A DNA stretch of 64,000 nucleotides from Escherichia coli (GCF_029227855.1 NZ_CP074356.1); one strand, 5' to 3'; shown: positions 34,717 to 63,805, counted from the stretch's first letter. The notes: generated from the sequence alone by a model not told the origin. A program made the numbers and translations.

Positions 34717-34851
34717 TGATGACTCCGGGTAACGATGTCAGGTTAATGGCAAAAGGCGTGCCAATATTTTTTATGTGAATAATCAATAGATTGAAAAACA
34801 GGCGGAAATGACGTTTCCGGTCTGGCGGAAAAAAGCCTGCCGCAGAAAGCA

Positions 34852-36271: not shown

Positions 36272-37165
36272 ATGCAAAGCACTATCAGGAAACATTTATC
36301 CCTTGCTAAGGTAAACTCAACTATGAGTATTATTATCAACAACTGGCGGATGGACCCGTCGCTTAATGCCTTAATACATTGCGAAACGGGTGAAACACGT
36401 CGTCTCGGCGAATACCATTTTATTTTGCTGGAAACATTAGCAAAAAATGCCGATGTGGTTTTATCGCGATCTTATTTATGTGCCGAAGTATGGAAGAACC
36501 GCATTGTCGGCGGTAACAGCCTGCCGACGGCGATCCACGCTCTGCGCGTTGCCATTGATGATGACGGCAAGCAACAGAACATTATTAAAACTATCCCGAA
36601 AAAAGGGTACCTGTGCAATAAAGAGTATGTGTCTTTGCCGGAGTCATCGCCTGCGGAAGCGCTGATTATTACCGACCAGATACAGGAAACAGTACCAGAA
36701 GAGATATCTTCTACAACACCGCCTGTGCCTGTTAGAAAAAAACATAAAGGACTGATGGGGTTAGCGTTGACCGCGGCTGTTATATTTATTGGCTCGACCG
36801 TGGGGTATTCACACTTGAAAAGTACACCTGACGCCCCGCAACTGGTAAAAGAGTCAATTAACAGTCCAAGAATAAAAATATTTCATCTTAGTTCTGGAAA
36901 AGAAAATAATTCCGCACCGTTACTGTCACAAACCCTCGCACCAGGAAAAGACAAACTCGATAATTTATTGTCAGCGCATAATATGACAATGACAACCTAT
37001 TATAAATATGTTCGTAACCGACTGGAGAGTGATATTGTTCTGCGCAACCAGTGCAATGGTAGCTGGCAATTAACCTTTAATGTGGATGAGTGGCAGAATA
37101 GCGATATTAATAGCGCGATGTATCAGAATTTAGAGAAGTTGTTAAATACTGTGCAGAAATGCTGA
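36272..37165 (+). CDS. lafZ: Membrane-anchored transcriptional regulator with ToxR/CadC-type winged-helix DNA-binding domain; alternative start at 36323
   Basis: N-terminal OmpR/PhoB-type DNA-binding domain, one TM segment, C-terminal periplasmic domain. Confidence 0.65.
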   Translation: MQSTIRKHLSLAKVNSTMSIIINNWRMDPSLNALIHCETGETRRLGEYHFILLETLAKNADVVLSRSYLCAEVWKNRIVGGNSLPTAIHALRVAIDDDGKQQNIIKTIPKKGYLCNKEYVSLPESSPAEALIITDQIQETVPEEISSTTPPVPVRKKHKGLMGLALTAAVIFIGSTVGYSHLKSTPDAPQLVKESINSPRIKIFHLSSGKENNSAPLLSQTLAPGKDKLDNLLSAHNMTMTTYYKYVRNRLESDIVLRNQCNGSWQLTFNVDEWQNSDINSAMYQNLEKLLNTVQKC

Positions 37166-42772: not shown

Positions 42773-43558
42773 TTACAGCGTCTGGCTGATGTACTGCAAC
42801 ATATCGTCCGCCGCCGACACCATTTTGGCGTTCATCTCGTACGCGCGTTGCACCGTAATCATCGCCACCATTTCGTTGACGATATCCACGTTCGATCCTT
42901 CCAGCGCGTTGTCCTGCAAGGTGCCAAGCCCATCTTCACCCGGCACCCCTTCGGTCGGCTGGCCGCTGGCGGCGGTTTCCAGATAGAGGTTGTCACCCTC
43001 GGCAGAAAGCCCCGCCGGGTTAGCGAAGTTAACCAGCGTCAGTTGCCCTAACTCGGTCACGTCGCTGTCGCCAGGTAAGATCGCCGTCACCGTGCCGTCC
43101 TCACCAAAAGCAACATTAGTCGCCCCCGCCGGAACGTCGATTTCCGGCTGTAACGGCAAGCCTTGCGAGTTGGTCAGCACGCCGTCGGCGTTCACCTGCA
43201 AGTTGCCGTCGCGGGTATAGGCGATATCGCCGTTGGCCTTTTGCACCTGCAAAAACCCCTGCCCCATAATGGCGACATTCATCGCGTTGTCGGTGGTTTC
43301 AACGTTGCCTTCGGTGAAGGTTTTCTGAGTGCCGACAATGCGCACGCCGCTACCGAATTGCAGCCCGGTCGGCATGATGTTGTTCTGGTCGAGCATCGCG
43401 CCCGGCGCTTCCTGGGTCTGGTAGAACAGATCCTGAAACATCACCCGGTCGCGCTTGAAGCCGGTGGTGTTAACGTTGGCGATGTTGTTGGCAATCGCGC
43501 TCATTTCAGCATCCTGCGCCGAGAGGCCGGTTTTGCTGATCCATAATGCTGCGTTCAT
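42773..43558 (-). CDS. lfgG: Flagellar distal rod protein (FlgG-like)
   Basis: 261 aa; rod-family N-terminal motif and C-terminal ...AYEMNAKM. Confidence 0.85.
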   Translation of the reverse strand: MNAALWISKTGLSAQDAEMSAIANNIANVNTTGFKRDRVMFQDLFYQTQEAPGAMLDQNNIMPTGLQFGSGVRIVGTQKTFTEGNVETTDNAMNVAIMGQGFLQVQKANGDIAYTRDGNLQVNADGVLTNSQGLPLQPEIDVPAGATNVAFGEDGTVTAILPGDSDVTELGQLTLVNFANPAGLSAEGDNLYLETAASGQPTEGVPGEDGLGTLQDNALEGSNVDIVNEMVAMITVQRAYEMNAKMVSAADDMLQYISQTL

Positions 43559-47066: not shown

Positions 47067-47082
47067 GGCAATTACCGTGCCA
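47067..47082 (-). promoter_or_regulatory. Sigma-54 (-24/-12) promoter of the lfgB rod/hook operon
   Basis: Minus strand reads TGGCACGGTAATTGCC, a near-perfect match to TGGCACG-N4-TTGC, about 35 nt upstream of the proposed lfgB start. Confidence 0.55.
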
Positions 47083-47090
47083 TTTTTTAA

Positions 47091-47849
47091 GTGACTGATG
47101 AGAAAGGGTTTATGAGTTTTCAATTTTGCAGGCGGAAGTTTTATTTCCTCCTGGCGCTGGCCTTACCGGGCTACGCCGCCGTCTACCCCGTGCAACACAG
47201 CGCGCGGGAACAAGTCAACGCCCAGGTGCTGAATGCCGCGAGCCAGCAGATTGAATCGCTGGCGCAGCAGCGGCAGTGGCATGACTATCGCTACACCTTT
47301 AAGGTCTACATTCCCTCGCAGATTGCGACCGCTGCGCCCTGTGCTGCGGCACCCGGCGTCACGCTGACGTCGCCTGTGGACATCGCCCTCAACCGCATGA
47401 ACTTCACCGTCAGTTGCCCGCAAAGCTGGCAGATGAACGTGGCGGTGCGCCCGGATGTGCTGGTGCCGGTGGTGATGACAAAGTCACTGGTTGCCCGCGA
47501 TACGCCGCTCACGGCGAATGATGTGGAGCTGAAGCCCTACAACGTCAGCGCCCAGCGTCGCGATGTGTTGATGGAGCTTGATGACGCAATTGGTTTAAGC
47601 AGTAAGCACGCGCTGCAGCCGGGCAGGCCAATCACCAAAGAAGAGCTGGTCTCTCCGGTACTGATCGAGCGCGATCAGCCGGTGATGATTGTTTACCAGA
47701 ACGCGGGGATCACCGCCTCGATGCCCGGCGTGGCGCTGAAAAATGGCCGCAAAGGCGAGATGGTGAAAGTACGTAACGCAAGCAGCCAGCGGGTCATCAG
47801 CGCGATGGTGGCGGAAAGCGGCGTGGTGACAACGGTAAGCGCGGAGTAA
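47091..47849 (+). CDS. lfgA: Flagellar P-ring assembly chaperone (FlgA-like); alternative start at 47112
   Basis: 252 aa with signal peptide; divergent from lfgB. Confidence 0.75.
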   Translation: MTDEKGFMSFQFCRRKFYFLLALALPGYAAVYPVQHSAREQVNAQVLNAASQQIESLAQQRQWHDYRYTFKVYIPSQIATAAPCAAAPGVTLTSPVDIALNRMNFTVSCPQSWQMNVAVRPDVLVPVVMTKSLVARDTPLTANDVELKPYNVSAQRRDVLMELDDAIGLSSKHALQPGRPITKEELVSPVLIERDQPVMIVYQNAGITASMPGVALKNGRKGEMVKVRNASSQRVISAMVAESGVVTTVSAE

Positions 47850-48646: not shown

Positions 48647-48773
48647 CGCGAATACCTTCCCCCATCGCGGAAATGGATTTTCCGCCTGATTCACAATCCT
48701 TTGTTTTTGATTATAAAAATTCCCGGCACGCTTATTGCACATTCCGCAAAGTAATAAAGACTGGAAGCCACCT

Positions 48774-49703
48774 ATGAGTTTTATTGAATGTTACGAACCG
48801 GAATACGTGCGCAATTTTATGACGCAATATCCCGATTCGCCTTTGTACATCCGCAAGGTGTGGAAAAACGAGATTCGCCAGAGCCTGATGCTGACAGAGC
48901 CAGAAAGCTGCGAAGCGGTGCTCAACGATGCCAGGGCCTTTGATTTACAGCTCACCTACCGCCCGGCGGAAGATAATGCCGCAGAACTCTCCGCGCGCGA
49001 TGCGATAGTAAACCAGGTCATTTTGAGCACCCTTACGCTCCCCGATTTACCCCCGGAGCTTTCACTGTACGCCGTCGGGATTTTGCTCTCCCGCGCCAGC
49101 AAAATGCCGGGCAGAGACGGAGATATTCTTGCCCGCTTGACGACGCTGCCACAGGCGCTGGCCGCTCATGCACAAAAAGGCACGCTACAGGCACAGTTCG
49201 CCCAGTTGCCGCCTGTACCACAGCTGGCGCGCCAACTGGTGACGCTGCTCGGCAGTTGTGCGTTTGACTGGTCGATTCTGCCGGAAAGCCCGCGCAAAAC
49301 TTCCCTGCCGTTGCAGATGCCTTTGCTGGCGCTACATGACGCCAACAGCGAAGCCCTGTTGCAACAGCAGCTTCAGGCACAGTGGCAAACCACCTGGCAA
49401 CAGCATTTTGCCACCGCGCCCTGGATGATGTGTAACTGGCTGATTTACCGCGTTTACCATGAGGTGATTGGACAGGCAGACGGAGCAGATTATTGCCCGC
49501 TGGTGTGCGATTTTTATTTTATCCGCACGTTAATCAGTTTATGGACGCTGGATGGTTCTCCGCTGCGGAAGGAGGATATTTTCGCCCTTTTTGCGGTGTT
49601 TGAACGCTGGCGAGAGAGTGAAAATGCGCTGTTTATTCGCCAGCAAATTCAGTCGTTATGTGCCGCCGACCCGCTGCTTTCAGCGTTTTCGCTGCTGACG
49701 TGA
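48774..49703 (+). CDS. Flag-2-associated hypothetical protein
   Basis: 309 aa from MSFIECYEPE with RBS GGAAG; no recognisable domain; track ORF starts at 48735. Confidence 0.5.
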   Translation: MSFIECYEPEYVRNFMTQYPDSPLYIRKVWKNEIRQSLMLTEPESCEAVLNDARAFDLQLTYRPAEDNAAELSARDAIVNQVILSTLTLPDLPPELSLYAVGILLSRASKMPGRDGDILARLTTLPQALAAHAQKGTLQAQFAQLPPVPQLARQLVTLLGSCAFDWSILPESPRKTSLPLQMPLLALHDANSEALLQQQLQAQWQTTWQQHFATAPWMMCNWLIYRVYHEVIGQADGADYCPLVCDFYFIRTLISLWTLDGSPLRKEDIFALFAVFERWRESENALFIRQQIQSLCAADPLLSAFSLLT

Positions 49704-49720
49704 AGCCGCTCTCGATCGGT

Positions 49721-49751
49721 CCCCTCGCCCCTTCGGGGAGAGGGTGAGGGG
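49721..49751. repeat. GC-rich imperfect palindrome (CCCCTCGCCCC..GGGGAGAGGGTGAGGGG)
   Basis: Shares the GGGGAGAGGGT..GAGGGG motif, in inverted orientation, with the element at 59434-59472. Confidence 0.4.
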
Positions 49752-49809
49752 CAAAGCACGCACAGCCCTCCTTACCCATCAAATTAACCCCTTAACTCAC
49801 CTAAACACC

Positions 49810-52281
49810 ATGCCAACACCAACCCTCATCAAAACACTCGCCACTCACCGCGAAAAACCGTTCGTCAGCGTCGTCACGCCCACATGGAACCGTAGCGCAT
49901 TCCTGCCGTACCTGCTCTATATGTACCGCTATCAGGATTACCCGGCAGACCGCCGCGAACTGGTCATCCTCGACGACTCGCCGCAAAGCCATCAACACAT
50001 CATCGACCGCCTGACCAATGGCACACCGGAAGCCTTTAACATCCGCTATATTCATCACCCGGAAAAACTGCCACTGGGCAAAAAACGCAACATGCTCAAC
50101 GAACTGGCGAGCGGCGAATACATCCTCTGCATGGACGATGACGACTACTACCCGGCAGATAAAATCTCTTACGCCATCGCCATGATGCAAAAACACCGGG
50201 CGCTCATCTCCGGTTCCGACCAGATCCCCATCTGGTACAGCCACATCAATCGCATCTTCCAAAGCCGCAGCTTTGGCTCACATAACATCCTCAACGGCAC
50301 CTTTTGCTATCACCGTAACTACCTGAAAAAGCACCGTTACGACGATGATTGTAATTTAGGCGAAGAGAAAAGTTTCACCAACAATTTCAGCGTTAACCCG
50401 CTACAACTGCCCGGCGAGCGCACGATTCTGTGTATCTCGCACAGTCACAACACCTTTGATAAAGATTTTATTCTCGGGGCTAGCACGCCAGTAAACGCGG
50501 CGCTTACGGATATCGTCCGCGATCCGCTGCTGCGCAATGCTTATCTGAGTCTGCATAACGCCACTCATCACCAGGCGATCGATCAGGTCGTACTGATCAA
50601 TCTGGATAAACGCCCGGATCGCTTACAGCAGATCCGTGAAGAACTCACATTGCTGTATATTCCGCCTGAGAAGATCACCCGCCTTGCCGCCAGTGAAAAT
50701 GAAAACGGTCAACGGGGTCGCCGCCAGTCACACTTGCAGGCGCTGCGCCTGGCGCAACAGCACGGCTGGCAAAACTACCTGCTGCTGGAAGATGACGCAG
50801 TTATTCTCAAGCAGGAGAAACATATTCAGGTACTGAACACGCTGCTCGCGAGCCTGGCGAAAATTCCCTGGCAGGTGATGATCCTTGGCGGCGAAATTTC
50901 GCAGGGAACGATGCTAAAAAGTTTGCCGGGGCTGGTGCACGCGCGGGACTGCCGCAAAGTGTGCGCTTATCTGGTGAACAGTCGCTACTACCCGCAACTG
51001 GCGCAGCAGATGAGCCACAATGAACACTCGCTGGAAGACGGCTGGCAGCCGCTGCTACGCGCCGACAAATGGCTGGCCTGTTACCCGAGCCTTAGTTATC
51101 AGCGACCGGGCTTTAGTGATATCGAGAAAAAAGTGACCGACAACATTGCTCACTATTTCAATAAGTTACCCGTTATCACAAAGCCATCCGCATTACCCAT
51201 CGCCGACACCATCGGCTTTTTTATGGAAACCTCCTTCCACTACGCGCTCTACCGCCCAATCATCACTGCTCTACAGGTGCAGGGGCAGAGCTGCACGCTG
51301 GTGATCAATGACCGCGTGTTTAAACCGTTTCTTGATGAGATGCTGGAAACACTGAAAAACATCGACGATCCGCAGCTTAAAGGAATGCGCTTATCTGAAA
51401 TGCAGGCACACGGTCAGCGGGTGAAATGCCTGGTCAGCCCCTACCACACGCCCGCGCTCAATGGCCTGGCAGCGGTGAACGTTCGCGCCATGTACGGCTT
51501 AGCCAAAGAGACGTGGAACCACGCCGACTGGAACCGTTTTTATCAACGCATTTTGTGTTACAGCCACTACAGCCAGCGGGCGCTGGCGCATTTCGGCAAT
51601 GCAAAAGCAGTCGGCAACCCGCGCTTCGACGCCTGGCATAACGGCACGTTTGCCCGCACTCTGCCGGAAAATATTCAACCCGATTCCCGTAAACCTACGG
51701 TGCTCTATGCCCCCACGTTTGGCGCATTAAGCTCCCTGCCCCACTGGGCAGAAAAATTAGGCCGCTTAAGTGGCAATGTGAATCTGATTTGCAAACTGCA
51801 CCACGGCACCTGCTCGCGCCCGGAAGAAGCGGCATCGCTGGCCCTGGCGCGCAGGCATTTAAAACAGCGCACCGACTCCGCCCGCCACACGCTGGCGCTG
51901 CTGGCAAAGGCCGATTACGTGCTGACCGATAACAGCGGCTTTATTTTCGATGCTATTCACGTTGATAAGCGGGTGATCCTGCTCGACTTTCCGGGCATGG
52001 CAGCGTTGCTCGACGGTGAGAAAAGTTACTCCACGCCGGAGAGCGCCGATCAGCAAATCCGCGAAATATTGCCGGTGGCTCATGATATGGCAGAGTTGCG
52101 TTACTTGTTGTCAGAGGCGTTTGACTGGGGGGCGGTGCAGGCGCGGCTTACGAAGATTCGCCATCACTATTGCGATGCGTTTATGGATGGCAAAGCGGGA
52201 GAACGGGCGGCGATGGTGATTGTGGAGGCGCTGGCGGACAAGGAATCGTCAGGGATATGTCGATATAATTCGATTTTTTAA
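49810..52281 (+). CDS. Multidomain glycosyltransferase: GT2 domain, GT25-like domain, and C-terminal CDP-glycerol glycerophosphotransferase (TagB/TagF-like) domain
   Basis: GT-A signature VSVVTPTWNR...ILDDSP with a DDDDYY acidic motif; middle LINLDKRPDRL; C-terminal VLYAPTFG (TagF-type YAPT motif); track ORF starts at 49744 inside the GC-rich repeat. Confidence 0.65.
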   Translation: MPTPTLIKTLATHREKPFVSVVTPTWNRSAFLPYLLYMYRYQDYPADRRELVILDDSPQSHQHIIDRLTNGTPEAFNIRYIHHPEKLPLGKKRNMLNELASGEYILCMDDDDYYPADKISYAIAMMQKHRALISGSDQIPIWYSHINRIFQSRSFGSHNILNGTFCYHRNYLKKHRYDDDCNLGEEKSFTNNFSVNPLQLPGERTILCISHSHNTFDKDFILGASTPVNAALTDIVRDPLLRNAYLSLHNATHHQAIDQVVLINLDKRPDRLQQIREELTLLYIPPEKITRLAASENENGQRGRRQSHLQALRLAQQHGWQNYLLLEDDAVILKQEKHIQVLNTLLASLAKIPWQVMILGGEISQGTMLKSLPGLVHARDCRKVCAYLVNSRYYPQLAQQMSHNEHSLEDGWQPLLRADKWLACYPSLSYQRPGFSDIEKKVTDNIAHYFNKLPVITKPSALPIADTIGFFMETSFHYALYRPIITALQVQGQSCTLVINDRVFKPFLDEMLETLKNIDDPQLKGMRLSEMQAHGQRVKCLVSPYHTPALNGLAAVNVRAMYGLAKETWNHADWNRFYQRILCYSHYSQRALAHFGNAKAVGNPRFDAWHNGTFARTLPENIQPDSRKPTVLYAPTFGALSSLPHWAEKLGRLSGNVNLICKLHHGTCSRPEEAASLALARRHLKQRTDSARHTLALLAKADYVLTDNSGFIFDAIHVDKRVILLDFPGMAALLDGEKSYSTPESADQQIREILPVAHDMAELRYLLSEAFDWGAVQARLTKIRHHYCDAFMDGKAGERAAMVIVEALADKESSGICRYNSIF

Positions 52282-52355
52282 ACATGTCGTTGGAATACGT
52301 TTATGCCATCGACATGTTTTAGGGATATGTCGAAAAAACGCGATTTTTTAAACAT
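52251..52355. repeat. Two 35-nt direct repeats flanking a hairpin at the 3' end of the glycosyltransferase gene
   Basis: AGGGATATGTCGA...CGATTTTTTAAACAT at 52251-52285 and 52321-52355; between them the inverted repeat AAACATGTCG...CGACATGTTT. Confidence 0.5.
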
Positions 52356-52410
52356 ATTTAACATAGCCAAACGGCAGACGGCATCATCTTCTCTCACCGC
52401 GGGAATTAAA

Positions 52411-52815
52411 TCAGTAGGTGGCTGATTTACCCCTAATCACCTCAATGATCCCCGTCGTCGATACCGATGGCGTACGGGGAAAATAGACCACCTCACAGAC
52501 ACACGAGAAATCGTCAAACTTCCCCGCCCAGTCATCGCCCATCACCAAAATATCCGCACCGTACCCCCGCAAATACTCCGCTTTCTGCTCCAGCGATTCC
52601 TCCAGAAATACGCCCTCCACGCACGCCAGCCCGGCGATAATCGCCATGCGGTCATCCTGATGGTAAACCGGTGCCCTGCCCTTTTTGGCGATGTTCAAGG
52701 CATCGGACGATACGCCGACCAGCAACCGTTCGCCCAGCGTGCGGGCGCGTTGTAAAAGGCGCAGATGACCGACGTGAAACACATCAAAGGTGCCGAAGGT
52801 GATGACCGTTTTCAT
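52411..52815 (-). CDS. Glycerol-3-phosphate cytidylyltransferase-like protein (TagD family)
   Basis: 134 aa; HxGH nucleotidyltransferase motif FGTFDVFHVGH; directly downstream of lfiJ on the same strand. Confidence 0.7.
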   Translation of the reverse strand: MKTVITFGTFDVFHVGHLRLLQRARTLGERLLVGVSSDALNIAKKGRAPVYHQDDRMAIIAGLACVEGVFLEESLEQKAEYLRGYGADILVMGDDWAGKFDDFSCVCEVVYFPRTPSVSTTGIIEVIRGKSATY

Positions 52816-55298: not shown

Positions 55299-56309
55299 TT
55301 ACTCCGCCGTCTGTTCCGCAAAGAGCTGTAGCTGAATTTCGCCCGCCTCTTCCAGTTCACGGGCGATGCCCATGATTTCGCGGCGGATCTGTTCGATACG
55401 GCTGACCGGTACCGGCCCCAGACGCGCGGTAATGGCTTCCAGTTGCTGCGCCTGACGTTTTGGCATTACCGCGTAAATCGAGCGGCGCAGCAGGGCTTCG
55501 GTGCCTTTCAGCGCCACCGCCCAGTCTTCCATCGGCACTTCGTCAAGCAGACGTCGACGCACCTCTTCGTTCTGGCGGCTGAGGATAAAGAAGTCGTACA
55601 TCTCATCCTGAAGCTGCTCCAGCACCTCTTCGTCGCGCTCGCGCATCTGGTCGAGGATCACCTGCTGGTTGCCCTGGAAGCGGTTGACGATATCCGCCGC
55701 CTGTTTGATGCCTTTCACCTTCGAGCCGTGTTCCGAAAGCACCGACAGGCCGCGTTCGATCAGCCTGTCCAGTTCATCCACCACGTCGCGGTTGACGTCG
55801 TTGAGTTTCGCCACCCGATAGAGAATTTCGTTTTGCACCGATTCATTGAGATACGAGAGCACCGCCGCCGAGATTTCCGGCGTCAGAAACGCGAGGAACA
55901 CCGCCTGCAATTGCAGATGCTCTTCGGAAATCAGCATCGCTAACTGGCGCGGTTCCACCCATTGCAGGCGCGCCATCCGCGAGCGGATCTCATCGCCGTA
56001 GATGCCATTGATCACGCTGCTGGCGATCTCGGTGCCGAGGGCTTTGTTAAGAATGCCCTGCAACATGGATCGCGATGCGCCGTTGATCCCGCTCTGTTCG
56101 CGGAACTCGTCAAAGAAGTTATTGATCACTTTGCGCGCCATGCTGGTTTTAACGCCGGAAAGCCGCGCCATGTTTTCGCTCAGGCGCACCACTTCTTCGC
56201 GGCTGAGTTTTTGCATCACCGTCGCCGCCGCTTCTTCGCCAAGGCACAGCAGCAGGATCGCCGCCTGTTCCAGGTAGCTGTTGCTCTTATTTGTTGTCAA
56301 TTCGCTCAT
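55299..56309 (-). CDS. lfiG: Flagellar motor switch protein (FliG-like)
   Basis: 336 aa; FliG middle and C-terminal domains. Confidence 0.85.
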   Translation of the reverse strand: MSELTTNKSNSYLEQAAILLLCLGEEAAATVMQKLSREEVVRLSENMARLSGVKTSMARKVINNFFDEFREQSGINGASRSMLQGILNKALGTEIASSVINGIYGDEIRSRMARLQWVEPRQLAMLISEEHLQLQAVFLAFLTPEISAAVLSYLNESVQNEILYRVAKLNDVNRDVVDELDRLIERGLSVLSEHGSKVKGIKQAADIVNRFQGNQQVILDQMRERDEEVLEQLQDEMYDFFILSRQNEEVRRRLLDEVPMEDWAVALKGTEALLRRSIYAVMPKRQAQQLEAITARLGPVPVSRIEQIRREIMGIARELEEAGEIQLQLFAEQTAE

Positions 56310-57933
56310 TGCTGGTGATCCATTGTCTGAGAACTTCGGCTACGCGATCGGTGTCGCTCATGGCCAGTTTTTGCAGGAACTCGAGTTTCACTTCGAGGCC
56401 GGAACTCTGGGACGGCAGGCTGTCATCGCCGGGCAGCGACGGCAGGTCGACGTTTTTGCGCTCCTCTTCCGGCATGGCAATCCACGGTTCGCTGACAGCT
56501 TCCGGTTCTGGTGTGATAACCGGCGCACGCACCGCCGTCAGGCGTTTCATTACCGGGCGCACCACAAAGAACAGCAACAACAGCGCCAGCAGGCCGCAGC
56601 CAATCAGGCGTACCCAGGCCAGCACGCTGTCATCTTTCCACAGCGGAATAATTGGTTCGACCGGCACCGCCTGCGGGACAAAGTTAAGCAGCGATAAGGT
56701 GAGATTGTCACCGCGCTGGACGTCGATCCCGGCGGCATTGTTCAGCAACGCGGTCAGTTGCGCAGTCTGCTCCGGCTTCCAGTTTTTCAGCGCCGGGGCG
56801 TTTTGATTGAGCACCACCGCCACGTTGAGGCGTTTCACCGCAAAACCAGGATGCTGAATATGCTGGACGCTGCGGTCGTAAGAGTAATCGCGCTTGCTTT
56901 CGCTGTGTTTGGATAACGCTTCCGGTGAGCGGTTTTCTTCCGTACCGTTGGTCATCTGATTCGCCGCAACTGGCGGACGGTTGCTGAGTGAACCGGGCAC
57001 GCCCATCGCCACCTGATTGGTGTCGCTGTCCAGCACGCTCTCTTCGCGGTTGATTTTCGGCGCGTCGCCGTAGTGTTCCTGGGTTTCGTCGATGGTACTG
57101 AGGTCGAGATCCGGCATCACGCTGACGCGGTAATTCCCCGTACCAACCAGCGAATCCAGCACGTTCGCCACGCTGGCGCGGGTTTTGTCCTGAATATCTT
57201 TGAGGATCTGATCGCGTTTACGGGTTGCGGCAGAAACCGCCTCGCCTGCGCCAATGCCGTCGGTCAGCAGATTTCCCGCCTGATCGACGACGCTGACTTT
57301 GCTGGCCTGTAGCCCCGGAATACTGCCGGACACCAGATGCATAATGGCGTTGACCTGGTCCATATTCAGCTTCGCGCCATAGTGCAGGCGCACCACTACC
57401 GAGGCGCTGTTTTGTGGCTCATCGCTGACCACAAACGAGCTTTCTTCGTTGAGCGCCAGATGCACCCGTGCGCTCTCCACCGCGTCCAGCGACATAATGC
57501 TCTGCGCCAGCTCCCCTTCGAGGCTGCGTTTGTAGCGCACGTTCTGCACGAACTGGCTGCTGCCGAGCACTTCGTCTTTGTCCATCAGCTCGTAGCCGCT
57601 GGGCAATATCGCCTGCACACCTTTGGCGGCAAGGGTCATGCGCGTTTTCGACAGTTCACCTTCCGGCACCAGTATCTGCCCGCTCTGCGGGTCGATGCGA
57701 TAGCTGAGCTTTTCGCCGTCCAGCACGGTGACAATCTGCGACACGGGCAGATTTTCCTGGCGTCCGTAGAGCGAGACGTAGCCGCGATTACCGGTCCACA
57801 GCACACTAACGATAATCGCCGTTGCCGCCACGGCAAGCCCCACTCCCGCCATCAACGCCCAGCGTTTGTTATCTGCGAGGCGCAGTCGAAACGCCGGAAA
57901 CGCCTGGGTTAACTTCTTTATTTGTGCATTCAT
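56287..57933 (-). CDS. lfiF: Flagellar MS-ring protein (FliF-like)
   Basis: 548 aa; two TM segments flanking a large periplasmic region. Confidence 0.85.
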   Translation of the reverse strand: MNAQIKKLTQAFPAFRLRLADNKRWALMAGVGLAVAATAIIVSVLWTGNRGYVSLYGRQENLPVSQIVTVLDGEKLSYRIDPQSGQILVPEGELSKTRMTLAAKGVQAILPSGYELMDKDEVLGSSQFVQNVRYKRSLEGELAQSIMSLDAVESARVHLALNEESSFVVSDEPQNSASVVVRLHYGAKLNMDQVNAIMHLVSGSIPGLQASKVSVVDQAGNLLTDGIGAGEAVSAATRKRDQILKDIQDKTRASVANVLDSLVGTGNYRVSVMPDLDLSTIDETQEHYGDAPKINREESVLDSDTNQVAMGVPGSLSNRPPVAANQMTNGTEENRSPEALSKHSESKRDYSYDRSVQHIQHPGFAVKRLNVAVVLNQNAPALKNWKPEQTAQLTALLNNAAGIDVQRGDNLTLSLLNFVPQAVPVEPIIPLWKDDSVLAWVRLIGCGLLALLLLFFVVRPVMKRLTAVRAPVITPEPEAVSEPWIAMPEEERKNVDLPSLPGDDSLPSQSSGLEVKLEFLQKLAMSDTDRVAEVLRQWITSNERIDNK

Positions 57934-57937
57934 AGGG

Positions 57938-58279
57938 TTAGATCGACATACTCATCAGATCGTTAAATCCGGTGGCGATTTTGTTGCGCACCTGCACCAG
58001 CGCGGAGAACGAGAGCGACGCCTGCTGGCTGGCGATCATCGCACCTGCCAGGTCATCACTTTTGCCCGTGTCGACAGCCGTTTGCTGCTGCTCTGCCACC
58101 TGCTGGAACTGGTCTACGTGACCGAGCGCGCCACTCATAATGCGGTTAAACGAAACGTCAGGATTGGTGGAACTGAAGGTCATGGCGGGCAGCACCGGCG
58201 CCTGGGCGTTGGCCTGCATCCGCTGCACGTCCTGCATGATTTGCGCCTGCATGGTGCTGTTGATTGTGGTAATGCTCAT
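57938..58279 (-). CDS. lfiE: Flagellar hook-basal body protein (FliE-like)
   Basis: 113 aa; first gene after the regulator. Confidence 0.75.
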   Translation of the reverse strand: MSITTINSTMQAQIMQDVQRMQANAQAPVLPAMTFSSTNPDVSFNRIMSGALGHVDQFQQVAEQQQTAVDTGKSDDLAGAMIASQQASLSFSALVQVRNKIATGFNDLMSMSI

Positions 58280-58293
58280 TTTTAACTTCCGGG

Positions 58294-59280
58294 TCAGGAG
58301 AAAACTTCGATACCTTGCTTGCGCATGGAGGCCAGTCGATAGCGCAGTGCGCGCGGGGTAATGCCTAACAGGTTGGCGATTTTGCTGCGGTTGCCCTGAT
58401 ATTTACGCATCAGGTCGGCGATATATTGATATTGCGCGCTTCGTCCGTGCTGGCCTAAATCGCAGGTTTCAGCAATGTGGACGGCGGGCTGAACAGGCCA
58501 TTGCAGTTCGCTGCGGTCGGCAACGTCCGTTTCCGGCAGGCCTAAGGCGTCCGGGTAAATTACGCCGTCGCGGTTTAAAATCATTCCCCGCTGAATGGCG
58601 TTCTCCAGCTGGCGCACGTTGCCGGGCCAGCGGTAATTGAGCAGCGCCCGGCGGGTAGATTCTGAAAGGGTGATATTTTTCACCAGCACCGTGGAGTATT
58701 TTTTAATAAATGACTCTGCCAGCGGAATAATATCGTTCAGACGTTCACGCAGCGGCGGCATGGTAATAGGGATTACCGCAAGACGATAATAGAGATCTTC
58801 ACGAAAACGCCCTTCGGCGACTTCCTGCTCAAGGTTTTTATTGGTACAGGCAATCAGGCGAAAATTGAGTTTAATTTGTCGGTTGCTGCCTAATCGCTCA
58901 ACCTGCTGTTCCTGCAATACGCGTAATATTTTGACCTGTAGCGCCAGCGGCATATCGCCAATTTCATCGAGCAATAAGGAGCCGTTATTCGCCAGTTCCA
59001 TTTTTCCTGGCACGCTGGCAATTGCGCCGGTAAATGCACCTTTGTCGTAGCCAAATAAGGTAGATTCCAGCATATTTTCCGGGATCGCCGCGCAGTTCAC
59101 GCCGACATAGGGTGCGCTTTCATTTTCACCAAAGGCTACGGTGTGAATATATTTTGCCACGCACTCTTTGCCCGCGCCGGTTTCGCCCTGAATGAGCACC
59201 GGCACGTTAAAGGCGGCGACACGCTTTGCCAGAGTAAAAGCGTTAATGCTGGAAGCGGCAGTTGCAATAAGTTCAGACAT
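58294..59280 (-). CDS. lafK: Sigma-54-dependent transcriptional activator (AAA+ domain plus C-terminal HTH; no receiver domain in the called ORF)
   Basis: Walker A GETGAGKE, GAFTGA motif, C-terminal Fis-type HTH; the ORF starts directly at the AAA+ domain. Confidence 0.8.
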   Translation of the reverse strand: MSELIATAASSINAFTLAKRVAAFNVPVLIQGETGAGKECVAKYIHTVAFGENESAPYVGVNCAAIPENMLESTLFGYDKGAFTGAIASVPGKMELANNGSLLLDEIGDMPLALQVKILRVLQEQQVERLGSNRQIKLNFRLIACTNKNLEQEVAEGRFREDLYYRLAVIPITMPPLRERLNDIIPLAESFIKKYSTVLVKNITLSESTRRALLNYRWPGNVRQLENAIQRGMILNRDGVIYPDALGLPETDVADRSELQWPVQPAVHIAETCDLGQHGRSAQYQYIADLMRKYQGNRSKIANLLGITPRALRYRLASMRKQGIEVFS

Positions 59281-59433
59281 AGGGTGAACGATATAAGTAG
59301 CGACAGAAAACAGGATGTTCTGAAGCGTATCACCGGCGGGATTAACAAGTTCGAATTAAACGATAATAAAAATATTATTTGATGGTAAACAATGAGTTAG
59401 ATATTAATACTGTTAATTGCGACATCTGTGATG

Positions 59434-59472
59434 CCCCCTCACCCTAACCCTCTCCCCGGATGGGGCTAGGGG
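59434..59472. repeat. GC-rich imperfect palindrome (CCCCCTCACCCTAACCCTCTCCCC..GGGGCTAGGGG)
   Basis: Inverted copy of the motif at 49721-49751, in the lafK-lfiM divergent intergenic region. Confidence 0.4.
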
Positions 59473-59652
59473 ACAGACCGCAGACTGATTGGCGAAAATC
59501 ACTCCCATTAAGCAATTAATCGATTAATTATTTTTTCATCCTATTAATAATTTGCCCCTTTCACTCCCCCTCTATTTAATACCTCACCTTGTGTCACTGC
59601 CGGATTTGCGTGCACAAAATCGCCCATACCATTACAGCAGAGAAAGTAAGCC

Positions 59653-60504
59653 ATGCTGAAGTACAGTAAAACGCCAGGCATCTTTAAATTAGAAGGTAAT
59701 CGGCTCGGACGCCCCTACCATCGCCTGCCGACCCTGTTTACGGGGAATTTTGACGTGATTGATTCGCATCTGGGCAGCTACTTTCTCAAAAAGCATCGCA
59801 GCAATATCACCTTAAAAAAGATTGGCTGCGAAATGGATATTATTAATAAAAACGCCGAACTGATGGTTTCCCAGGTCGGGCATCTGGCGTTTGATATTGA
59901 TCGCTCCTTGCTGTTAATGCTGCTGGGCAATTTTTATGGTCTGGAGTCGTCTCTTGAAGAGGCGAAAGCCCATAACGGGTTGCCGACCAAAACCGAAACG
60001 CGTTTAAAAAACCGTCTGGCGCTGGATATCTGCACGCTGATATTTAATCTGCAAACCTCCGGTATTGCGCTGAAATTAAAACTGGACAGCAGCACGGTGA
60101 TTACCCACTGGGCGTATCAATTAACCTTTACCCTTGCGGACGATGAAGAGAGCAGTTTTCGTATTTTGCTCGACGACGCCCACACCGATTTTATTTTGAA
60201 TCTGATCCGCCACAGCGAGCACAGTAAACCGCAGCAGGTGGCGAAATCCGTTAATAAACCGGCCCTGATTAAAGAAATCATCCGCTCCCTGCCGCTGACC
60301 CTGAACGTCAAAATCGCCGAACTGTCGCTGAATGTCGCGGATCTCACGCAGATAAAAGCCGGGGATATTTTACCCATCTCGCTGGGAGAAACGTTCCCGG
60401 TGGCGATTGGGCAATCTGAATTATTTAGCGCCCTGATTGTGGAAGACAAAGACAAACTGTTTTTGTCGGAGCTGGCGGGCAAAAATGAGAATAGCCATGA
60501 GTAA
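59653..60504 (+). CDS. lfiM: Flagellar motor switch protein (FliM-like, short form)
   Basis: 283 aa; first gene of the fliMNPQR-flhBA-type operon. Confidence 0.75.
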   Translation: MLKYSKTPGIFKLEGNRLGRPYHRLPTLFTGNFDVIDSHLGSYFLKKHRSNITLKKIGCEMDIINKNAELMVSQVGHLAFDIDRSLLLMLLGNFYGLESSLEEAKAHNGLPTKTETRLKNRLALDICTLIFNLQTSGIALKLKLDSSTVITHWAYQLTFTLADDEESSFRILLDDAHTDFILNLIRHSEHSKPQQVAKSVNKPALIKEIIRSLPLTLNVKIAELSLNVADLTQIKAGDILPISLGETFPVAIGQSELFSALIVEDKDKLFLSELAGKNENSHE

Positions 60505-61893: not shown

Positions 61894-62676
61894 ATGCGCA
61901 CAAGCGACGTTACGCAACTGATGGATCTGGCGCTGGGGCTGTGGTTTCCCTTCGTGCGCATTATGGCGTTTCTGCGCTATGTGCCGGTGCTGGATAACAG
62001 CGCCCTGACCGTGCGCGTGCGGATTATTTTGTCGCTGGCGCTGGCAATCATCATCACGCCGTTGATCCCCCATCCCATTCCCCACGATCTGCTTTCACTC
62101 AACAGCCTGATCCTGACGGTGGAGCAAATTTTATGGGGCATGTTGTTCGGGCTGATGTTTCAGTTTCTGTTTCTCGCGCTACAACTGGCCGGACAAATTC
62201 TCTCGTTCAATATGGGGATGAGCATGGCGGTGATGAACGACCCGAGCAGCGGCGCATCGACCACCGTGCTGGCGGAGTTAATCAACGTCTATGCGATCCT
62301 GCTGTTTTTTGCCATGGACGGGCATCTGCTGCTGGTAAGCGTGCTGTATAAGGGCTTCACCTACTGGCCGATTGGTAACGCGCTGCATCCGCAAACCCTG
62401 CGCACCATCGCGCTGGCCTTTAGCTGGGTGCTGGCGTCCGCATCACTGCTGGCGCTGCCGACCACCTTCATCATGCTGATTGTGCAGGGCTGCTTTGGCC
62501 TGCTCAACCGCATCGCGCCGCCGCTGAACCTCTTTTCGCTCGGCTTTCCCATCAACATGCTGGCGGGGCTGGTTTGCTTTGCCACCCTGCTCTACAACCT
62601 GCCGGATCACTATCTGCATCTGGCGAATTTTGTGTTGCAGCAACTCGACGCGCTGAAAGGTCACTATGGCGGATAG
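61894..62676 (+). CDS. lfiR: Flagellar export apparatus protein (FliR-like)
   Basis: 260 aa multi-TM protein from MRTSDVTQL; track ORF starts at 61843. Confidence 0.8.
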   Translation: MRTSDVTQLMDLALGLWFPFVRIMAFLRYVPVLDNSALTVRVRIILSLALAIIITPLIPHPIPHDLLSLNSLILTVEQILWGMLFGLMFQFLFLALQLAGQILSFNMGMSMAVMNDPSSGASTTVLAELINVYAILLFFAMDGHLLLVSVLYKGFTYWPIGNALHPQTLRTIALAFSWVLASASLLALPTTFIMLIVQGCFGLLNRIAPPLNLFSLGFPINMLAGLVCFATLLYNLPDHYLHLANFVLQQLDALKGHYGG

Positions 62677-63805
62677 CAGCAGCGAAGAAAAAACAGAGAA
62701 ACCCTCGGCGCAAAAGCTGCGTAAAGCGCGTGAAGAGGGGCAACTGCCGCGCTCGAAGGATATGGGGCTGGCAGCGAGCCTGTTTGCAGCGTTTGTGGTG
62801 ATCTCCAGCAGTTTTCCGTGGTATGCCGATTTTGTGCGCGAGAGTTTTATCAGCGTGCATCAGTACGCGCAGGAGATTAATAACCCGCAGGTGATCGGTC
62901 AGTTTCTGCGCCACCACCTGTTAATTCTCGGCAAGTTTATCCTTACGTTGCTGCCGATGCCCGCCGCCGCGCTGCTCTCTTCGCTGGTGCCGGGCGGCTG
63001 GCTGTTTCTGCCGAAAAAAATCCTCCCGGATTTCAGCAAAATTAGCCCGTTAAAAGGCATTGGGCGTCTGTTTTCCAGTGAACATCTGGCGGAAACGGGA
63101 AAGATGACGGTGAAGTCTGCCGTGGTGCTGGTGATGCTGTGGGTAAGCCTGCGCAATAACTTTGCCGCCTTTCTCGGCCTGCAGGCGCTGCCGTTCAAAC
63201 TGGCGATGAATGACGGTTTGTCGCTCTACGCCAGCGTGATGCGCAACTTTGTCATCCTGTTTATTTTCTTTGCGCTTCTCGACGTGCCGCTGGCGAAAGC
63301 CCTGTTCACCAAAGGGCTGAAGATGACCAAACAAGAACTGAAAGAAGAGTACAAAAATCAGGAAGGCAAGCCGGAAGTGAAGGCGCGCGTGCGGCGGCTG
63401 CAACGGCAGCTGGCGATGGGGCAAATTCGCAAAGTGGTGCCAAAGGCCAACGTGGTGATCACCAACCCGACCCACTACGCCGTGGCGTTGCAGTATGACC
63501 AGTCGCGTGCCGCCGCGCCGTTTGTGGTGGCGAAAGGCACCGATGAAATCGCCCTCTATATTCGCCAGGTCGCTGCTGAAAGTCAGGTGGAAGTGGTCGA
63601 GTTCCCGCGGCTGGCGCGCTCGGTTTACTATACCACTCAGGTGAATCAGCAAATTCCTTTTCAGCTTTACCGGGCTATCGCCCACGTTCTGACCTACGTC
63701 CTGCAAATGAAACACTGGCGCGAGGGCGCACAGCCGCGCCCGGCCCTGAACAGACATATTTCCATTCCCAAAGAGGTGCTTAAACTGGATGGCGAAAACA
63801 ACTAA
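62666..63805 (+). CDS. lfhB: Flagellar export apparatus switch protein (FlhB-like)
   Basis: 379 aa; NPTH autocleavage motif (VVITNPTHYAVAL). Confidence 0.9.
   Translation: MADSSSEEKTEKPSAQKLRKAREEGQLPRSKDMGLAASLFAAFVVISSSFPWYADFVRESFISVHQYAQEINNPQVIGQFLRHHLLILGKFILTLLPMPAAALLSSLVPGGWLFLPKKILPDFSKISPLKGIGRLFSSEHLAETGKMTVKSAVVLVMLWVSLRNNFAAFLGLQALPFKLAMNDGLSLYASVMRNFVILFIFFALLDVPLAKALFTKGLKMTKQELKEEYKNQEGKPEVKARVRRLQRQLAMGQIRKVVPKANVVITNPTHYAVALQYDQSRAAAPFVVAKGTDEIALYIRQVAAESQVEVVEFPRLARSVYYTTQVNQQIPFQLYRAIAHVLTYVLQMKHWREGAQPRPALNRHISIPKEVLKLDGENN

Follow-up and report, generated by a model that had tools for sequence, protein, structure and literature searches.

The lafK gene of Escherichia coli raises the question of how a sigma-54-dependent flagellar activator is controlled when its product appears to have no N-terminal receiver or sensor domain. 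The first-pass annotation had proposed this architecture, and had suggested that activity is then set by expression level or by a partner protein rather than by phosphorylation. Here, the whole stretch of 64,000 nucleotides that we analysed (the window) is the E. coli Flag-2 (second, lateral-type) flagellar locus. We identify the gene as lafK because the gene order, both in the window and in RefSeq, matches the published Flag-2 order lfhAB-lfiRQPNM-lafK-lfiEFGHIJ (De Maayer et al. 2020, PMC6993521), with lafK lying between the divergent lfiM and lfiEFGHIJ. The lafK coding sequence (58294..59280, minus strand) has an ATG start and encodes 328 residues. Only 14 nt downstream is lfiE (57938..58279, minus strand), the fliE homologue, and from this short gap the two genes are probably co-transcribed; lfiF (56287-57933) comes after lfiE. 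On the other side, lfiM of the FliM/FliN family (59653..60504, plus strand) is the first gene of the divergent lfiMNPQR-lfhBA operon.

The 1.8 kb around lafK is 100% identical in strain JNEC-KY178, and the whole 45-kb overlap with that strain has 99.94-99.99% identity. The RefSeq annotation of JNEC-KY178 has an identical 328-aa CDS (WP_021516940.1) with matching coordinates, under the product name 'sigma-54 interaction domain-containing protein', between a FliM/FliN-family gene and fliE-fliF-fliG-fliH-fliI-fliJ. Moreover, LafK is 95-97% identical to common E. coli protein clusters, and the 1.8-kb region is shared by 1284 of the 5426 complete E. coli genomes, making Flag-2 a widespread (about a quarter of such genomes) though largely unstudied system. 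The other Flag-2-specific regulator beside lafK is lafZ (36272-37165, plus strand), for which the annotation says only 'transcriptional regulator'; published work describes it as a putative transmembrane regulator. As a further observation on the locus, the variable region between lfgN and lfiJ (48735-52815) holds a fliB-like lysine-N-methylase gene, one for an 845-aa glycosyltransferase, and a cytidylyltransferase-like gene.

The reading frame had been described as opening at the AAA+ sigma-54 domain and closing with a helix-turn-helix (HTH), and both the Pfam boundaries and an alignment with PspF agree with this. The AAA+ sigma-54 interaction domain (PF00158, Sigma54_activat) spans residues 6-172 (58765..59265, minus strand; E 6.9e-64, 215 bits against a cut-off of 20.2), and is followed by the AAA+ lid domain (PF25601, AAA_lid_14; residues 178-246, 58543..58749, minus strand; E 5.9e-20) and by a Fis-type HTH_8 DNA-binding domain (PF02954; residues 284-317, 58330..58431, minus strand; E 9.5e-9). 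The AAA+ domain carries the Walker A motif GETGAGKE (residues 32-39; 59164-59187, minus strand), the Walker B motif LLLDEIG, and the GAFTGA loop (residues 81-86; 59023-59040, minus strand), which together mark LafK as a bacterial enhancer-binding protein (EBP), and the arginine-finger region FREDLYYRL and PGNVRQLEN are both intact. From these motifs, LafK is predicted to be an ATP-dependent activator of the sigma-54 holoenzyme. No domain was found ahead of the AAA+ in a Pfam search of the 328-aa protein. Lack of any match to the receiver (PF00072) in this search sets LafK apart from the NtrC-type response regulators (FlrC/FleR/FlbD), as does lack of the FleQ N-terminal domain (PF06490) from FleQ/FlrA. 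The FlbD model matches LafK only from profile position 120 onward, with 308 bits against a cut-off of 750. In the PspF alignment, LafK residues 4-234 correspond to PspF residues 8-238, which puts the AAA+ core 4 residues nearer the N-terminus in LafK, and the suggested PspF/HrpS-like layout of AAA+ followed by HTH holds. With nothing N-terminal to the AAA+ and the C-terminal HTH kept, LafK is thus a type Ic EBP.

We then considered the DNA upstream of the gene for a longer N-terminus. The divergent lafK-lfiM intergenic region (59281..59652) measures 372 bp with 41.7% GC, close to the 370 bp given in the first-pass annotation, and is non-coding as was said there: each of the six frames is broken by stops, and any ORF lying wholly inside the region is at most 45 aa long. 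An unannotated upstream start was looked for as well: the first in-frame stop, a TAA (59356-59358, minus strand), lies 25 codons before the ATG, and none of the 25 in-frame codons between them is ATG, GTG or TTG. In Citrobacter, Hafnia, Budvicia, and Atlantibacter, the order is lfiM, a gap of 434-641 bp without a called gene, lafK, and fliE, and in these four genera the DNA upstream of lafK has 24-33% GC, with in-frame stops 2-23 codons ahead of the start. Moreover, a tblastn search of the window and of the lafK upstream DNA of these four other genera, for which the receiver domains of nine close receiver-bearing relatives were the queries, gave no receiver remnant, the best match (E=0.07, 20 bits) being noise. 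A longer LafK N-terminus is ruled out by the all-frame stops, by the missing start codon, and by the lack of a receiver remnant in the five genera.

As to what the intergenic region does contain, it carries a GC-rich element (CCCCTCACCCTAACCCTCTCCCCGGATGGGGCTAGGGGACAG, 59430..59480) that is one copy of a repeat dispersed through E. coli intergenic DNA. A 76-bp query covering this repeat (59425-59500) has matches in 5388 of 5426 E. coli genomes, with a median of 11 sites per genome, yet at least 80% of the query was matched in only 57 genomes, and the copy upstream of lafK may be lineage-specific. Within 15 nt of the lafK ATG there is no Shine-Dalgarno sequence (59281-59300, ctacttatatcgttcaccctATG), so that translation initiation may be inefficient or leader-dependent. 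A search for riboswitches and small RNAs gave no Rfam family in the lafK-lfiM region, only a single chance sub-threshold match, and a scan for strict sigma-70 consensus sequences and terminators returned nothing. Nor does the region hold a sigma-54 -24/-12 site (the best GG-N10-GC scores 7/11) or the palindrome described below, and neither of these was found within 10 kb of lafK in the four other genera. The non-sigma-54 promoters of the lafK and lfiM operons presumably lie in 59281-59652.

The short form is also the conserved one. LafK orthologues from 17 enterobacterial lineages are 326-348 aa long and begin in the same start region. When the 17 orthologues were aligned, the short form was found throughout, the N-termini differed by at most 17 residues, and Walker A and B, GAFTGA, the arginine-finger region, and the HTH were invariant, including LGITPRALRYRLASMR in HTH_8. 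Almost all of the best 120 homologues are likewise 324-348 aa, these without an N-terminal Pfam domain, and they come from Escherichia, Citrobacter, Leminorella, Atlantibacter, Pseudescherichia, Scandinavium, Siccibacter, Budvicia, Pantoea, Regiella, Paramixta, Pluralibacter, Pragia, Hafnia, and others. The gene evolves under purifying selection, as the lafK dN/dS of 0.18 relative to E. coli PCN033 and of 0.03-0.04 relative to Citrobacter shows. Longer database proteins were considered and set aside. Four homologues (P0052, P0068, P0102, and P0078), 462-521 aa long and carrying receiver or ACT domains, might have passed for full-length ancestors but are chimeric metagenome assemblies, in which the N-terminus of an E. 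coli NtrC, TyrR or other EBP is joined to the LafK C-terminus at FREDLYYRL or PPLRER. Two others (P0009 and P0010) are frameshift read-throughs into lfiE or lfiG. Separately, we note that LafK assembly chimeras of this kind could mislead surveys of domain architecture.

Where LafK would act was approached through the sigma-54 promoters of the window, of which three near-consensus examples lie just upstream of Flag-2 genes. These are TGGCACGGTAATTGCC (47067..47082, minus strand) upstream of lfgB (lfgBCDEFGHIJKL), whose GGCAC and TTGC elements are invariant in six genera, TGGCACGCCTTTTGCC (34748..34763, minus strand) upstream of lafB, the fliD homologue, and CGGCACGCTTATTGCA (48724..48739, plus strand) upstream of the fliB-like lysine-N-methylase and glycosyltransferase genes. 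When the three upstream regions were compared, they proved to have an inverted repeat in common, CGGAAA-N5-TTTCCG(CCTG), lying 45 bp from the -24 GG at lafB and the methylase gene and 56 bp from it at lfgB, a difference of one helical turn. At lfgB, this candidate LafK enhancer is AGGAAATAAAACTTCCGCCTG (47129..47149, minus strand), whose GGAAA and TTCCG half-sites do not vary in Enterobacter, Serratia, Budvicia, and Erwinia, although the DNA on either side has diverged. Upstream of lafB are two adjacent candidate boxes (34799..34842, minus strand), namely CGGAAACGTCATTTCCGCCTG (34799-34819), from which the 45 bp is counted, and the degenerate CGGCAGGCTTTTTTCCGCCAG (34822-34842). The candidate box of the methylase gene, CGGAAATGGATTTTCCGCCTG (48668..48688, plus strand), is conserved in C. 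amalonaticus, even though the methylase protein there is only 55% identical. In alignments of diverged intergenic DNA, the invariant islands are GGAAA, TTCCG, GGCAC, TTGC, and an A-rich tract before the -24 element.

Within the 64-kb window, the 21-nt pattern with up to 3 mismatches occurs 8 times, all within Flag-2, against 0.79 expected, a count that is circular on its own since the pattern was derived from three of those sites. An independent scan used one genome per species from 100,044 species and exact matches to GGAAA-N5-TTTCCG-N35-60-GGCAC-N5-TTGC. This gave 63 matches, 15 of them in Enterobacterales, and all 15 fall in flag-2 loci at lfgB, lafB or the methylase gene. Those upstream of lfgB are from two Enterobacter species, Serratia, Budvicia, and Erwinia, those upstream of lafB from Pseudocitrobacter, Citrobacter, and E. 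whittamii, and those upstream of the methylase gene from seven genomes, C. amalonaticus among them. Because the matches at lafB and the methylase gene in Escherichia, Citrobacter, and Pseudocitrobacter come from close orthologues, they do not count as independent evidence; most of the independent support for the palindrome is supplied by C. amalonaticus and by the lfgB sites of five genomes that are more distantly related. Outside Enterobacterales, 46 of the 48 matches are in unrelated taxa and show no adjoining similarity to the Flag-2 proteins of the window; of the remaining two, one precedes flgB/flgC-like genes in a deltaproteobacterial MAG and the other adjoins an EBP gene. As a separate observation, a fifth copy of the palindrome, with 2-3 mismatches, lies inside lfgG (43126-43150) and has a poor GG-N10-GC site 38 bp downstream. 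No convincing promoter was found at the right spacing from this copy, which could mark an internal promoter or have arisen by chance.

NtrC-type sites have a 6-N5-6 geometry, and CGGAAA-N5-TTTCCG has the same. Here, the invariant LafK HTH (LGITPRALRYRLASMR) is paired with an invariant DNA motif, and we think it rather probable, judging from these sequence patterns, that the palindrome serves enterobacterial Flag-2 loci as a LafK enhancer that is new to the literature; no description of it was found in the literature searched, the original LafK papers lying outside that search. In the mechanism that we propose, LafK dimers would bind CGGAAA-N5-TTTCCG at the lfgB operon, the lafB operon, and the fliB-like methylase/glycosyltransferase genes, where the palindrome has its midpoint roughly 74 or 86 bp ahead of the start site. 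Bound LafK would then assemble into an ATPase ring and remodel the sigma-54 holoenzyme through its GAFTGA loop. Neither lafK nor the lfiM export-gate operon has a sigma-54 promoter or a box of this kind, which would place both a tier higher than the LafK targets. The sigma-54 promoters with their conserved palindrome at lfgB, lafB, and the methylase gene are indirect support for a LafK that would be needed to express the class II genes of the lateral flagellum. If true, this makes for a compact LafK regulon of hook-basal body rods, filament cap, and flagellin modification genes, beneath a sigma-54-independent top tier of lafK and the export-gate operon that is unlike the V. parahaemolyticus hierarchy. 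Flagellin modification also seems to belong to the regulon, as the methylase gene has its own sigma-54 promoter with a candidate LafK box upstream.

That the short LafK might instead be a mis-called start, or a recently 5'-truncated pseudogene that lost its receiver, could be argued from the missing Shine-Dalgarno sequence, from the dispersed repeat inserted upstream, and from the few database proteins of 462-521 aa that have a receiver or other N-terminus ahead of a LafK-like C-terminus. These proteins being assembly chimeras, and the in-frame stops, the same short form in 17 lineages, the lack of a receiver remnant, and the dN/dS of 0.04-0.18 all speaking against it, this reading is already refuted, and we regard it as scarcely credible. 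A different possibility is that lafK is intact yet idle in a cryptic, decaying locus and is never usefully expressed in E. coli. Flag-2 is reported to be non-functional in E. coli 042 and in Yersinia (PMC4481668), the nearly identical JNEC-KY178 carries an lfhB annotated as frameshifted, and some E. albertii have lost lafK-lfiEFGHIJ by deletion. Against this, lfhB (the flhB homologue, 62666-63805) is intact in the window with 379 codons, all other Flag-2 genes are annotated as intact in JNEC-KY178, lafK is under purifying selection within E. coli, and its target promoters and boxes are conserved, and we therefore hold an idle lafK to be decidedly improbable. As a side observation, lfhB differs between the window and the 99.99%-identical JNEC-KY178 by a single 1-nt indel.

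Control by phosphorylation of a receiver domain is excluded because LafK has no receiver, in line with what had been suggested from the first reading, and the lack of a cognate kinase gene leads to the same conclusion. Without a receiver or sensor to restrain the AAA+, LafK would be active whenever it is made, and its output would follow its concentration. This level would depend on how strongly the AT-rich, non-sigma-54 lafK-lfiM region drives transcription and perhaps also on inefficient translation, given the missing Shine-Dalgarno sequence. We infer such constitutive activity by analogy with PspF and HrpS, and on this footing LafK output is probably set by its amount. PspF and HrpS, the analogues of LafK, are themselves restrained by partners, PspA and HrpV, which together with FleN/FleQ form the known anti-activator pairs (PspA/PspF and HrpV/HrpS), and a comparable partner might hold the LafK AAA+ in check, in which case activity would track the partner rather than the level. 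The literature on V. parahaemolyticus, where LafV acts on the surface regulon only when LafK is present, also points this way. Yet no candidate partner gene adjoins lafK in the five genera, and the Vibrio literature places control at the level of the lafK transcript, with lafK mRNA repressed 50-100-fold by OpaR in V. parahaemolyticus (PMC4406679). In the same organism, ExsA reportedly inhibits LafK, and the laf genes are targets of CalR and further regulators (PMC9029033). We consider a controlling partner unlikely, and it would in any case be compatible with level control rather than opposed to it; expression-level control of LafK is consistent with this Vibrio literature, and no experiment on E. 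coli LafK was found in the literature searched. Overall, we regard it as likely that LafK is the Flag-2 sigma-54 activator, of FlrC/FleR type, reduced to AAA+ and HTH, with an output that would be set by its level and exerted by binding to the palindrome.

The absence of an N-terminal receiver or sensor domain from LafK, on which Pfam, the upstream stops, tblastn, and the orthologues agree, is no new property. LafK, PspF, and HrpR/S have been classed as activators without a signal-recognition domain (Francke et al. 2011, PMC3162934), and because LafK is listed there its architecture was already known; the receiver-less form is thus normal, conserved, and published. The present result restates this property, with the candidate LafK box as a modest by-product, though one that offers a cheap test of whether lafK expression alone switches on Flag-2. 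Its practical value is in annotation: several pipelines automatically name LafK orthologues FlrC, in some cases 'response regulator FlrC', which is wrong for LafK because it has no receiver.

The closest solved structure to LafK is the AAA+ domain of V. cholerae FlrC (4qhs, E 7e-73). FlrC of V. cholerae and FleR of P. aeruginosa are like LafK in the C-terminal HTH_8, in the GYxKGAFTGA loop (FlrC), and in a gene directly upstream of fliE, the place that flrC/fleR occupy in polar flagellar systems. They differ in being class III polar-flagellar response regulators, whereas LafK has neither a receiver nor a cognate kinase gene. In an exhaustive search among 1.84 billion representatives, most near relatives of LafK are 430-480 aa long and match from about residue 125-150, that is, they are receiver-bearing, and a minority are 332-368 aa long and match from residue ~3-57, commonly ~12-33. 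Four short relatives from outside Enterobacterales were looked up, and all four lie directly upstream of fliE-fliF-fliG-fliH-fliI; one is from Steroidobacteraceae, one from Pseudomonadales, and one is on a metagenome contig. Another has the order flhB-flhA-ompA-like-EBP-fliE, which we take to be that of the V. parahaemolyticus lateral system. From these sequence comparisons, we infer that LafK is an activator of the FlrC/FleR lineage that lost its receiver. One Pseudomonadales MAG (L004, 2772-6400) has, in order, a FleQ-like EBP, a 251-aa HisKA/HATPase kinase, a receiver-less 350-aa FlrC-like EBP, and fliE, and here a flagellar kinase adjoins a receiver-less activator, the EBP starting 5 nt after the kinase gene.

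Among the other known systems, E. coli PspF is like LafK in having the AAA+ followed by HTH_8, with the AAA+ core within ~10 residues of the N-terminus. The two are not orthologous, LafK scoring 235.1 against a cut-off of 443.55 for TIGR02974 and 203.2 against 529 for PRK11608, and unlike PspF, LafK has no pspA-like inhibitor gene nearby and a flagellar regulon. HrpR/HrpS of Pseudomonas syringae, also sigma-54 activators, likewise lack a receiver and stand at the head of a regulon related to type III secretion. They act as a heteromeric pair with a HrpV/HrpG partner switch, as against the single lafK gene here. FleQ/FlrA resemble LafK as top-tier sigma-54 flagellar activators with a similar AAA+ (PDB 5exx, E 3.9e-65), but have the PF06490 N-terminal domain that LafK lacks. 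Closest in setting is the LafK of V. parahaemolyticus, A. hydrophila, and E. coli 042 Flag-2, which heads fliE-F-G-H-I-J from the same place and is sigma-54 dependent, the likeness of Vibrio LafK to the E. coli protein being drawn from gene position and published description. In V. parahaemolyticus, lafK is listed among the RpoN-controlled promoters and follows motY_L in an operon (PMC4406679), while in the E. coli window lafK has no such operon arrangement and, like the lfiM operon, is without a recognisable sigma-54 promoter.
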